Sequence record: SRR20825015_191
Length of the DNA stretch: 64,000 nucleotides
Reading direction: 5' to 3' (one strand)
In this document: piece after piece, positions 35,132 through 38,457 of the stretch
How positions within the stretch are numbered: the first letter of the stretch is position 1
How the letters are laid out: the number at the start of each line of letters is the position of its first letter
Made by a program: the position numbers and the translations under genes
The notes under the pieces: model-generated
Seen by the model: only the letters and a program-made list of their open reading frames with translations
What the model was told of the DNA's origin: nothing
Databases searched by the model: none

Positions 35132-35764
35132 ATGATGAAACTTACTTTAACGCTCCTTTCCTGTGTGCTCGCGCTCCCCGTGATGCACGCGGCGACCCCT
35201 GCTGATTCCGCTGAAGCGGCCAAACCGCTCGCGATTGGGGCGGAAGCCCCACAGGTAACACTTTTGACCAACGAGGGGGAATCTTTCGACCTCGGCGCGG
35301 CCGTCCGCGAACAGCCGACGGTCCTGATCTTTTACCGGGGCGGCTGGTGCCCGTATTGTAACCGTCACCTCATGGCGCTGCAGGAAATTGAGGGCGATTT
35401 GAGGGAGATGGGCTATCAGATTATCGCGGTAAGTCCGGACAAGCCTGCCGCTTTGCAACCGACGACCGATAAGAACGAACTCCATTATCAATTGCTCTCA
35501 GACCGAGAAATGAAAGCGGCCTCGGCCTACGGAGTCGCCTTCCGCCTCTCGGATGAAATCGTGACGAAATATAACAAGTGGGGATTTGACCTCGCTGCCG
35601 TGCCCGGCGATCCAGAAGCGCGTTGGTTGCCCGTGCCAGCTGTATTCATGATCAACGAAGATGGGGTCGTGCGTTATGTGCACACGAATCCCGACTACAA
35701 GGTGCGGTTGGATCCGGATGACTTGCTGGAGGCTGCCGAAGAAGCTTTGGGCTCGGACGACTAG
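35132..35764 (+). CDS. exported peroxiredoxin-like (AhpC/TSA, PRX-like2) protein
   Basis: Signal peptide, FYRGGWCPYC, AVSPD, LPVPAVF, PDYKVR. Confidence 0.92.
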   Translation: MMKLTLTLLSCVLALPVMHAATPADSAEAAKPLAIGAEAPQVTLLTNEGESFDLGAAVREQPTVLIFYRGGWCPYCNRHLMALQEIEGDLREMGYQIIAVSPDKPAALQPTTDKNELHYQLLSDREMKAASAYGVAFRLSDEIVTKYNKWGFDLAAVPGDPEARWLPVPAVFMINEDGVVRYVHTNPDYKVRLDPDDLLEAAEEALGSDD

Positions 35765-35830: not shown

Positions 35831-35876
35831 GTGTCATTGCGAGAAGGCCGCGTCGCTCCGCGACTCGCAATGACAC
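35831..35876. repeat. 13-bp inverted repeat hairpin between convergent genes
   Basis: GTGTCATTGCGAG-(20 nt)-CTCGCAATGACAC. Confidence 0.7.
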
Positions 35877-35886
35877 TGGGCTGATT

Positions 35887-36081
35887 TTAGGAAACAGACT
35901 CGACCGCTTCGATTAAATCGGCGCGAAGATTGGGCACGAGAAAATCGTGGAAAGCTTCCGGCGTGCTCACTGGTTTCGGGGATTCAGCTTGTGGCTGAGT
36001 AGTCCGGCGTGAAGGCGCCTGTGTTTTGATTCTCTTCGTCCGGCGATGGCGGTGAGGAGGTTCGGCGAGGATGGGATGCAT
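35887..36081 (-). CDS. small hypothetical protein (64 aa) downstream of the attenuator
   Basis: ATG at 36081, ~45 nt after the terminator U-tract: MHPILAEPPHRHRRTKRIKT...FHDFLVPNLRADLIEAVESVS. Confidence 0.55.
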   Translation of the reverse strand: MHPILAEPPHRHRRTKRIKTQAPSRRTTQPQAESPKPVSTPEAFHDFLVPNLRADLIEAVESVS

Positions 36082-36125
36082 GGTATGTGGTGGTTTGGAC
36101 CACTCCACTGCCGACACCGGGGAAT

Positions 36126-36154
36126 AAAAAACCCTCCGGTGTGGCACCGGAGGG
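36126..36154 (-). terminator. intrinsic terminator of the attenuator
   Basis: Minus strand CCCTCCGGTG-CCA-CACCGGAGGG-TTTTTT: perfect 10-bp stem plus U6. Confidence 0.9.
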
Positions 36155-36178
36155 GAAAGATTCGAGATTAAGTTACGA

Positions 36179-36280
36179 TCAATACCCTCGCGGTGCGGTG
36201 ATAACGGAAATGGCGGAGACGACGGCCACGGAGACGTGGACGGAAGCAACTGCCAGAAGCGATTTACCGGAGAGGATCAT
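36179..36280 (-). CDS. attenuator leader peptide (33 aa, Val/Ile/Leu-rich)
   Basis: Hand translation MILSGKSLLAVASVHVSVAVVSAISVITAPRGY*: 7 Val, 3 Ile, 3 Leu; absent from the supplied ORF track (shorter than any ORF listed). Confidence 0.75.
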   Translation of the reverse strand: MILSGKSLLAVASVHVSVAVVSAISVITAPRGY

Positions 36281-36343
36281 GTAACGATTTGAGAAAAGGG
36301 CGAAGAGGACTGGCTCTGTCAAGAATCGGATTCGAAATCCTCG

Positions 36344-36640: not shown

Positions 36641-37747
36641 TTACTTATCGAGCACGTTGTCGGGCAATTTTGGCACCAGCAGCTTGGGGCGAGCCGCGGG
36701 TGTCTTGATGGTGACGTGACGTCCGCTGTGGGAAGACTTTTCGAAAGCGGCCATGACTTCGACGACGTGGGTCACCAGTTCGCCATTACAACGGTATTTG
36801 CGGCGACGGCGAAGAATTGAATAAGCCATGTCGGCCACCCCGGTGCCACGCAGGCGTTGATCCGAGTGAGTGAGGGGATGATCGGTGAATTCGTCCTCGC
36901 CCATCCGCTTGATGCTGACAGGACCCTCGAAGGTATTGGGATTCGGCACGAGCATCGTGCCTTCGCTGCCGTAAAGCGTGATGAAGGAGCGGTCCTTGGC
37001 GGGGAGAACATCAAAGCTCATGATGATGGTCACGATGGCTCCGTTGGCGAATTCCATCGTGCCGGCATAATGGGTGGGCACTTCCACTTTCACCTTTTTA
37101 CCCGCCAGAGGTTTGCTGGTGATCGTGCGATGTTTGAAGGAGGCCTTGGTCGAACCACTGACCCGTTTAACCGGACCCAACAGATTGACGAGAGCGGTGA
37201 TGTAATAAGGGCCCATATCGAACATCGGACCGCCGCCTTGCTGGTAATAAAACTCCGGGGCGGGATGCCAGGATTCATGGCCGCGCCCCATGCAGTAAGC
37301 CGTGCCGGCGACGGGTTTACCGATCAAACCGTCGTCGAGTAATTGACGTGATGTTTGACTCCCTCCACCGAGGAAGGTATCGGGTGCTCCGCCGACGAGG
37401 AGATTCTTGCGTTTGGCGAGTGCGAGCACGCGTTTGGCCTCCTTTACATTGAGGCCGAAGGGTTTTTCCACATAGGCGTGCTTGCCGGCGTTAAGGATCT
37501 GTTCGTTGACCGAGGCATGGGCTTGAGGAATCGTGAGATTGACGATGATCTCGACCTCGGGGTCGACGAGCAACTCATCCACGGTGCAGGCGCGCACGCC
37601 GTATTCCTTGGCTTTTTCCTGAGCGCGCTTGAGATCGAGATCAGCACAGGCGACCAGATCGAGGACGTCGTAATTTTTGCAGCCGGTGAAATAGGCTTTG
37701 CTGATATTGCCGCAGCCGATGAGACCGATTTTAACCTGACGGGACAT
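36641..37747 (-). CDS. Gfo/Idh/MocA family oxidoreductase
   Basis: IGLIGCGNIS, NLTIPQAH, GKHAYVEKP, APDTFLG, GGGPMFDMGPYY; true start ATG 37747 (MSRQVK). Confidence 0.95.
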   Translation of the reverse strand: MSRQVKIGLIGCGNISKAYFTGCKNYDVLDLVACADLDLKRAQEKAKEYGVRACTVDELLVDPEVEIIVNLTIPQAHASVNEQILNAGKHAYVEKPFGLNVKEAKRVLALAKRKNLLVGGAPDTFLGGGSQTSRQLLDDGLIGKPVAGTAYCMGRGHESWHPAPEFYYQQGGGPMFDMGPYYITALVNLLGPVKRVSGSTKASFKHRTITSKPLAGKKVKVEVPTHYAGTMEFANGAIVTIIMSFDVLPAKDRSFITLYGSEGTMLVPNPNTFEGPVSIKRMGEDEFTDHPLTHSDQRLRGTGVADMAYSILRRRRKYRCNGELVTHVVEVMAAFEKSSHSGRHVTIKTPAARPKLLVPKLPDNVLDK

Positions 37748-37785
37748 AGAGATAGGAGGGGATTTGAGGGTGAAAGTGACCGCGA

Positions 37786-38457
37786 TTACTTTGTGGGCAT
37801 GGGCCCGAACTGATCGTTGAAAGTGTGGTAGCCTTGGGCGTCTGTGAGCATGGTGTCGAGAGTGTTGACCAGGGTTTCGCGATTTATGACGCCGGAAAAC
37901 ACCGCTTGGTCGCCAATCGAACTGGCAATGATGAAGGCGGGACGCTGGGTGAGTTGATGGGCGTGGAATTCGGCGGTGCTGGCGGCGATGCGCTCGCGCA
38001 CGGCGGCAGAGGTCGCGGCAGCACGAAGTTGGTCCGCATTGAGCGAAAATTCGCGGGAAGCGATGGCGAGTGAGATTTCGATATCCCCTACTTTTTGGCC
38101 TTCCTGCAAGGCGGCACGGGCGAGCGCGCGGCGGAGGGAATCGTCGGTGCATCCGAAATCGCGGCCGGCTTCGGCTACGAGTAGCGGGGCTTCATAGTTG
38201 CCCCGGCGTTCCTCTTCAAACCAGTCGGGGGTCAATCGGGGTGCCTGGGGTTGGAGAGAACCGCTTCGTTGGTAGAGCCAGGCGCATTGTCGGTTTGAAA
38301 CCGGAAAATCCTCGCGATTCATCTGGGCAATTTTCCATCCAAAATCGACATGTCCGTCGTAACGTTGTTGGAGATCATCCCAAACCGGCTCCACATAAGT
38401 GCACCAGGAGGACATGAGATCGAGATAGTAGGTGATCTGTAGTAGGGGAGCGCTCAT
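37786..38457 (-). CDS. DsbA/FrnE-like thioredoxin-fold protein (SxxC variant)
   Basis: ITYYLDLMSSWC at the usual CxxC position; QRPAFII cis-Pro-like loop. Confidence 0.8.
   Translation of the reverse strand: MSAPLLQITYYLDLMSSWCTYVEPVWDDLQQRYDGHVDFGWKIAQMNREDFPVSNRQCAWLYQRSGSLQPQAPRLTPDWFEEERRGNYEAPLLVAEAGRDFGCTDDSLRRALARAALQEGQKVGDIEISLAIASREFSLNADQLRAAATSAAVRERIAASTAEFHAHQLTQRPAFIIASSIGDQAVFSGVINRETLVNTLDTMLTDAQGYHTFNDQFGPMPTK

Follow-up and report, generated by a model that had tools for sequence, protein, structure and literature searches.

The window, which is the whole stretch of 64,000 nucleotides (nt) analysed from sequence record SRR20825015_191, carries an element whose anatomy is best read as a ribosome-mediated transcription attenuator of a family found in many Opitutaceae genomes. 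The attenuator would sense charged tRNA-Val, and in the window it would control one gene that encodes a conserved and probably disordered microprotein of 64 amino acids (aa). We give this reading a probability of about 75%. Leader-peptide attenuators are textbook switches, and to our knowledge they are known for biosynthetic operons and aminoacyl-tRNA synthetase genes. An earlier note on this DNA had reported a TTGACA hexamer (36322-36317), a leader open reading frame (ORF), the segment GCACCG-C-GAGGG, a terminator, and the 64-aa ORF. All of these features are present on the minus strand at the coordinates that the note gave. The features of the element are listed below from upstream to downstream.

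36317 to 36322, minus strand: TTGACA, the -35-like hexamer of the putative leader promoter, as read in the sequence.
36291 to 36299, minus strand: T-rich motif CCTTTTCTC at the expected -10 position, with a putative promoter role.
36179 to 36280, minus strand: leader ORF of 33 codons and TGA (ATG at 36280, TGA at 36181-36179), encoding the peptide MILSGKSLLAVASVHVSVAVVSAISVITAPRGY.
36226 to 36239, minus strand: hairpin within the leader ORF (CCACG-TCTC-CGTGG) that is part of the minimum-energy fold; most rows of alignment A3 share the conserved sequence CCACGYCTCCGTGG.
36185 to 36196, minus strand: 5' strand of the proposed antiterminator, GCACCG-C-GAGGG, which corresponds to leader codons 29-32 (GCA CCG CGA GGG, A-P-R-G).
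36126 to 36154, minus strand: intrinsic terminator, consisting of CCCTCCGGTG, the loop CCA, CACCGGAGGG, and T6; the stem has 10 base pairs (bp), 8 of them GC pairs, and the loop has 3 nt.
36115 to 36122, minus strand: partial copy of the terminator 5' arm, CCCCGGTG, a potential partner of the freed 3' arm in the read-through RNA.
36087 to 36108, minus strand: hairpin that lies 3' of a GGAG-like stretch and ahead of the small-ORF start codon, with a presumed role.
35887 to 36081, minus strand: gene of the 64-aa microprotein, the sole gene that the attenuator would control in the window.
35914 to 35949, minus strand: conserved motif HDFLVPNLRADL, residues 45-56 of the microprotein, compared over 76 unique sequences.

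The relatives of the element were reached through the GNAT protein of the window, which led to metagenome-assembled genomes (MAGs) of Cephaloticoccus, a genus of Opitutaceae (Verrucomicrobiota). The window DNA was then searched against 401 sampled genomes of this family with a cut-off of E<=0.01, and matches were obtained in 191 of them. The weakest of these matches cover the hairpin only, and the locus counts given here rest on the best 90 unless stated otherwise. The locus set consists of those best 90 loci (one per genome) and the window, which gives 91 loci and 89 unique sequences; two loci (L106 and L156) end at contig edges. The neighbour genes were assigned by tblastn of reference proteins. 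All-against-all BLAST clustering of the neighbour ORFs was set aside because antisense shadow ORFs dominate in GC-rich genomes. The IlvB genes of the same loci served as the background for synonymous codon usage. The closest relatives of the window are genomes G185, G134, and G001.

A leader ORF of 29-39 codons was identified at the same place in all 91 loci. Its start codon is ATG in 88 loci, GTG in two, and TTG in one, and its peptide ends in the pattern (A/T)-P-R-G-x-stop. The leader stop codon is followed after 14-27 nt by a GC-rich hairpin with a stem of 8-13 bp and a U-run, also in 91 of the 91 loci. The layout of a ribosome-stalling attenuator that the earlier note had recognised in the window is thus common to the whole set, with ilvBN downstream in nine loci.

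The leader of the window contains 7 Val, 6 Ser, 5 Ala, 3 Ile, and 3 Leu, with valine at codons 11, 14, 16, 18, 20, 21, and 26. Valine is the commonest residue when the leaders are pooled over the loci (20.6%), followed by alanine (15.4%), serine (15.2%), leucine (7.5%), and isoleucine (4.3%). The wobble base of the 596 valine codons varies freely (GTC 315, GTT 107, GTG 100, and GTA 74). The rare codons GTT and GTA account for 181 of the 596 (30%), whereas they make up 3% of the valine codons in the IlvB background. Freedom at the third base is the pattern expected if the decoding of valine matters. The conserved signal sensed across the loci appears to be valine, and isoleucine and leucine exhibit no conserved enrichment. 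The description of the element as a Val/Ile/Leu-type attenuator was therefore borne out for valine and not for the other two amino acids. The longest valine run is 4-8 codons in the nine ilvB-type leaders and 1-4 codons in the others. The serine codons of the leaders are also peculiar, with 77% TCC (332/430) against 49% in the IlvB genes, for which valine sensing alone is no explanation. Serine and alanine interleave with valine in the leaders of the small-ORF type and not in those of the ilvBN type.

The last leader codons behave in the opposite way to the valine codons and are frozen at synonymous sites. CCG is found in 76 of 87 sequences, CGA, AGA, or CGG in 83 of 87 with the usual CGC absent, and GGG in 74 of 87. 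CGA alone accounts for 57 of 87 against a background of 4%, and the background of GGG is 12%, with GGC making up 75% of the glycine codons in IlvB. The first base of the arginine codon, which is bulged in the proposed pairing, is C or A. The duplex between the leader 3' end and the terminator 5' arm has a mean energy of -19.6 kcal/mol, compared with -7.7 kcal/mol for the best other leader window and -11.6 kcal/mol for shuffled sequences. The terminator 5' arm pairs most strongly with the leader 3' end in 89 of the 89 unique sequences. In alignment A3, 95.7% of 978 cells of the antiterminator helix are paired, compared with 43-60% when the partner columns are slid. The 186-nt leader RNA of the window folds at -55.2 kcal/mol against a shuffle mean of -40.7 kcal/mol (z = -4.15), none of 200 shuffles was as stable, and the minimum-energy fold includes the proposed antiterminator pairing.

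The earlier note had called for a terminator and an antiterminator that exclude each other and covary. The competition is seen, with close mean hairpin energies of -25.1 kcal/mol for the terminator and -22.5 kcal/mol for the antiterminator, and the covariation is minimal. RNAalifold on the 89-row alignment returned only the terminator with nine consensus pairs that are nearly invariant, and covariation tests therefore have little power. One leader variant, MIRSAVKSASVASVHVSVVVVAVCAGAPGGS in L132 (G142:C15), has a changed terminator arm and a matching change at the leader 3' end (GCCAG facing CTGGC).

Further structures surround this pair of helices. The terminator 3' arm can pair with the downstream copy of the 5' arm at a mean of -18.6 kcal/mol, compared with -13.7 kcal/mol for shuffles (z < -1.5 in 55 of 83). 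The hairpin before the small-ORF start codon has a mean of -12.0 against -9.0 kcal/mol (z < -1.5 in 31 of 83), and its stem sequence differs among lineages. A small conserved hairpin lies immediately 3' of the leader stop codon. The hairpin at 36239-36226 shows no pairing with 36196-36185 and could possibly act as a pause hairpin for RNA polymerase. Conservation of the locus at the DNA level is highest in a region of about 120 nt that extends from mid-leader to the terminator. In the relative L001, where the gene order is as in the window, the leader-to-terminator DNA is 78% identical and the GNAT protein just 60%. No family in Rfam 15, including the leader and T-box families, was matched at its gathering threshold; the best was anti-hemB with 19.9 bits against 49.5 (E = 0.19).

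A putative promoter precedes the leader. Of the 89 unique upstream regions, 80 contain TTGAC, which lies 40-43 nt ahead of the leader start in 65 of the 80. Alignment of the sequences on TTGAC reveals CTTTTT at positions 23-28, where conservation reaches 81-86% in the best columns. The promoter-like signal is thus TTGACA, a spacer of 17-18 nt, and a T-rich CTTTTT that is unlike TATAAT. If this T-rich motif serves as the -10 element, the 5' untranslated region before the leader ATG would be only about 5-7 nt. Such a short region hints at a different -10 element or at near-leaderless translation in Opitutaceae.

The leader is followed by an ORF of 60-113 aa in 77 of 79 loci (window included) by a scripted call outside the AHAS-type and contig-end loci. 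The small ORF of L173 was added by eye, which gives 78, and for L154 only the first codons were viewed. The conserved motif of the small ORF is H-D-[FLM]-L-[VLIM]-x-N-x-[RH]-P-D-L (HDFLVxNxRPDL). Its aspartate is invariant in 76 of the 76 unique sequences over both codons (GAT 42, GAC 34), and its leucine is likewise kept in 76 of 76 over four codons. Histidine is present in 68 and proline in 62 of the 76; histidine, phenylalanine, and proline are also kept over varying codons. Differences at codon positions 1, 2, and 3 number 331, 281, and 537 (24 pairs, 1623 aligned codons), and the third-position excess is also seen in the stand-alone pairs window/L091 and L093/L094. By these patterns, the small ORF is under protein-level selection.

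A profile search of 1.84 billion proteins returned 126 representatives of the small ORF with 47-133 aa. The relatives that are named in databases are all annotated as 'hypothetical protein', and one of them comes from an Opitutaceae MAG. The small-ORF proteins of the window and its homologues (six homologues in all) have no match in NCBIfam (0/4) or Pfam (0/6), and a search of the ESM Atlas with the microprotein gave no usable hit. For the family alignment, AlphaFold2 gave a predicted local distance difference test score (pLDDT) of 72.9, a predicted template modelling score (pTM) of 0.22, and no fold except for a single helix at residues 54-60. The small ORF encodes a real, fast-evolving microprotein that is probably disordered and has a single conserved linear motif, because its invariant residues are kept over varying codons, third positions change most, a family profile exists, and AlphaFold2 predicts no fold. 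The codons of HDFLV were also considered as an RNA hairpin, since CACGA-TTTTC-TCGTG is palindromic in the window, yet these codons vary synonymously across the loci and the hairpin role was therefore rejected. One subfamily of the microprotein (L119, L127, L129, L137, L148, L158, L167, and L179) has a second C-terminal motif, DPDSMFW-P...GDAA. Another subfamily, which is linked to an aminotransferase gene, ends in F-x-N-I-D-[FL]-P.

The output of the attenuator differs among the loci. In nine loci, the leader and the terminator lie directly ahead of the large subunit of a biosynthetic acetohydroxyacid synthase (AHAS; TIGR00118, 667.9 bits against a cutoff of 538), and a small-subunit-like gene follows. 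In L132, the leader variant is followed by an AHAS small-subunit-like ORF with no large subunit adjoining. The window element is best read as homologous to this ilvBN attenuator of Opitutaceae. A class I/II aminotransferase gene follows the small ORF in 15 of the 90 loci, and its start overlaps the small-ORF stop by 4 nt in 11 of the 13 loci that were checked. The linked aminotransferases are 57-95% identical to each other. The claim that the small ORF is the sole output therefore stands for the window, where a convergent AhpC/TSA gene comes next, and does not extend to those 15 loci.

The 64-kb window was searched and no AHAS homologue, no aminotransferase homologue, and no second copy of the attenuator element were found, which agrees with the remark in the earlier note that it holds no ilv gene. 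The controlled gene of the window matches no family that makes valine or charges its tRNA, whereas ilvBN in the nine related loci does make valine. G185, G134, and G001 each have one AHAS that is 42-43% identical to the leader-linked type and has no leader. Their best aminotransferase matches are 28-30% identical to the linked type, and therefore no orthologue of the linked aminotransferase was found in these genomes. The microprotein is the only known target of the attenuator in all three. No credible small ORF was found in five genomes with an ilvBN-type element. The two types occur together in none of eight genomes, a comparison that covers few genomes, some of them possibly incomplete.

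In the proposed mechanism, transcription would start a few bases 5' of the leader ATG and a ribosome would translate the 33-codon leader. When valine is plentiful, the ribosome would reach the TGA and mask codons 29-32 (GCA CCG CGA GGG), so that the terminator at 36154-36126 would form and transcription would end at the U-run. When Val-tRNA is scarce, the ribosome would stall at the valine codons 11-21. Codons 29-32 would then be free to pair with the terminator 5' arm as the antiterminator, the freed 3' arm would pair with the downstream copy of the 5' arm, and RNA polymerase would continue into the microprotein gene. Termination would depend on a ribosome arriving at the stop codon, because no segment that masks the antiterminator was found. 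A response of the element to valine is predicted from the leader codons.

Several observations weigh against the reading of the element as a valine attenuator for a microprotein. The ribosome-free fold prefers the antiterminator, and a search for a segment pairing with the antiterminator strand found none, unlike in the textbook trp and ilv models. The antiterminator helix is conserved and scarcely covaries, with both sides changed in 2 of 978 cells. The valine codons of the window leader are scattered with a longest run of two, and the richness of the leaders in serine (15.2%) and alanine (15.4%) is not accounted for by valine sensing. The promoter scan of the window gave no sigma-70/TATAAT-like -10 box paired with TTGACA, and no clear Shine-Dalgarno sequence was seen ahead of the leader ATG when the upstream sequences were read by eye; the translation of the leader can therefore only be inferred. 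The leader ORF differs at codon positions 1, 2, and 3 by 94, 104, and 100 changes, and this absence of a third-position excess would fit a regulatory ORF and gives no positive sign of translation. The microprotein itself has no family, fold, or known partner.

The only functional lead for the microprotein is the link to valine supply, together with the aminotransferase in some genomes. Most likely, it would use the HDFLVxNxRPDL motif to bind a partner and so take part in a process linked to valine supply. We tentatively propose, at somewhat short of even odds, that it is a disordered effector of valine starvation that is made only upon stalling at valine codons and that binds and retunes a conserved partner, such as an enzyme or a regulator in branched-chain amino-acid or pyruvate metabolism. 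The attenuator would have been re-used in Opitutaceae as the sensor of small-protein signalling, in place of an attenuator-controlled ilvBN isozyme or following its loss.

The linkage to the aminotransferase leaves room for another role of the small ORF, namely a cis-acting translated spacer (a second upstream ORF) that delivers ribosomes to the aminotransferase gene and is a functionless leftover in the loci that lack this gene, the window among them. The presence of the aminotransferase in 15 of the 90 loci, the 4-nt overlap in 11 of the 13 checked, and the conserved ...IDLP or IDFP end of the small ORF are in keeping with such a spacer. However, about 60 loci without the aminotransferase retain the intact ORF, the motif, and the synonymous variation, and the third-position excess is found in the stand-alone pairs (window/L091 and L093/L094). 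The 28-30% identity of the best match in the relatives of the window, compared with 57-95% among the linked enzymes, also speaks against the spacer, which we consider unlikely. A main product in the form of the terminated transcript acting in trans as a small RNA (sRNA), or of the 33-aa hydrophobic peptide, with attenuation as a secondary matter, seems about as improbable. It has a published precedent in rnTrpL and peTrpL of Sinorhizobium (PMC7298713), and the best conserved DNA of the locus is the same region of about 120 nt (78% identity to L001 against 60% for the GNAT protein). That conservation is, however, accounted for by the valine codons and the two competing helices. The N-terminal half of the leader peptide varies freely with no third-position excess, and the same leader controls ilvBN in nine loci. 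Such products would in any case be compatible with attenuation.

The earlier note had offered an orphan attenuator left by the deletion of an ilv gene as its alternative; in the version considered here, the 64-aa ORF would be a chance frame or an ilvB remnant. Homologous leaders do stand ahead of ilvBN elsewhere, the small ORF is missing in five of the five ilvBN-type genomes, and the leader-linked AHAS is missing in three of the three relatives of the window. The sequence HDFLV moreover resembles KHNFLV of IlvB, and a profile comparison aligns that very spot, but the hhalign probability is 0.8% with E = 0.072 over 11 columns, which supports neither homology nor an origin of the small ORF as a fragment of IlvB. 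The note had named a leader directly ahead of ilvB in relatives with the 64-aa ORF unconserved as the sign of a deletion scar; the leader does precede ilvB in nine loci, but the ORF is conserved. It is carried by at least 77 loci and is intact in all 77 called ones, its invariant residues are kept under synonymous variation, and its differences are most numerous at third codon positions (331/281/537). The 64-aa ORF is therefore not a deletion scar, and we regard the orphan explanation as highly improbable. Scarcely credible is the absence of any attenuator, in which case the hairpin would simply terminate the GNAT operon upstream and the 33-codon frame would be a chance ORF. The GNAT gene of the window does stop 22 nt before TTGACA with no terminator in between, and the promoter scan found no -10 box. 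Nevertheless, the element lies in many different neighbourhoods with GNAT upstream in only 6 of the 91 loci, the frame, start, and stop of the leader are kept in 91 of 91, and TTGAC is conserved in 80 of the 89 upstream regions.

The upstream neighbours of the element in the window are a GFO/IDH/MocA oxidoreductase gene and the gene of the 96-aa GNAT protein (PF14542). The oxidoreductase is called as a 503-aa ORF (36641-38152, minus strand) that is over-extended; its GFO/IDH/MocA domains start at about residue 141 (MSRQVKIGLIGCGN...), and the upstream part of the ORF overlaps a DSBA-like gene at 37786-38457. The convergent AhpC/TSA gene (35132-35764, plus strand) is the next gene downstream, and a DUF1684 gene also lies downstream. 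A DUF1684 gene is convergent and downstream in 18 loci including the window, with AhpC between in the window and some others; the remaining loci have differing gene neighbourhoods around the element. An inverted repeat sits between the 64-aa ORF and the AhpC gene.

35831 to 35876, no strand assigned: 13-bp inverted repeat with the perfect arms GTGTCATTGCGAG ... CTCGCAATGACAC; 2 arms were found against 0.12 expected by chance.

The inverted repeat is likely a two-way terminator or a repeat element. Four public runs contain the DNA of the locus as contigs, and parts of the repeat recur on a second contig of run X2. It may therefore be a dispersed repeat that doubles as a two-way terminator. In run X4, whose library type is unlabelled, a 367-nt contig spans 35833-36159, from the terminator to the inverted repeat, with adaptor-like loose ends on both sides. 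This contig was not used as transcript evidence, as contigs cannot reveal transcript ends.

A well-built valine attenuator that is common to a large part of a verrucomicrobial family thus mostly serves a microprotein of no known family, which suggests a hitherto undescribed response to valine shortage in Opitutaceae. Should the switch function in the way that its anatomy implies, the microprotein would be made specifically under valine shortage. The function of an unannotated small protein could then be approached directly, and the switch would point to a starvation response that acts through more than enzyme synthesis alone. Verrucomicrobiota would also be added to the phyla with ilvBN-type attenuation. 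The approximately 90 natural variants can be used to study how an attenuator is tuned by codon number, spacing, and rarity. A literature search for Opitutaceae and attenuators found nothing, and Verrucomicrobia are unmentioned among the matches listed for attenuation, leader peptides, and ilvB.

The element can be compared with several known systems. The ivbL-ilvBN attenuator of E. coli, which controls the AHAS I operon, has a leader rich in valine and leucine. The Opitutaceae element is similar to it in the short leader rich in valine codons, the terminator with a U-run, the antiterminator that overlaps the leader 3' end, and the control of an AHAS large subunit and a small-subunit-like gene in nine loci. 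It differs in having no sequence or Rfam relationship to ivbL-ilvBN, in the 64-aa protein of no known family that is controlled in the window, and in the extra helix between the terminator 3' arm and the downstream copy of the 5' arm. In the textbook attenuator, an upstream segment pairs with the antiterminator strand if the leader is left untranslated (1:2 pairing), and no such masking segment was found in the Opitutaceae element. The enterobacterial ilvL-ilvGMEDA attenuator has a leader of 32-33 residues in which valine is mixed with other small or hydrophobic residues. The leader of the window is of similar length and mixture; isoleucine (4.3%) and leucine (7.5%) are not conserved enrichments in the Opitutaceae leaders, and the output is different.

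The ilvB-II motif is an upstream ORF ahead of ilvBNC in Corynebacterium (PMC10272879). It is similar to the present element as a conserved control of ilvB by an upstream ORF outside proteobacteria, and it differs in the phylum, in the absence of detected sequence similarity, and in serving biosynthetic genes only. The trpL attenuator of Sinorhizobium meliloti gives rise to the trans-acting RNA rnTrpL and the peptide peTrpL (PMC7298713, bioRxiv 10.1101/606483). It resembles the present element as an amino-acid attenuator with products that reach past the biosynthetic operon. The extra actors are the leader RNA and peptide in S. meliloti, whereas a separate downstream microprotein gene would take that part here. 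Among the matches listed, the trpL attenuator of S. meliloti is the nearest precedent for attenuator products that act beyond their operon.

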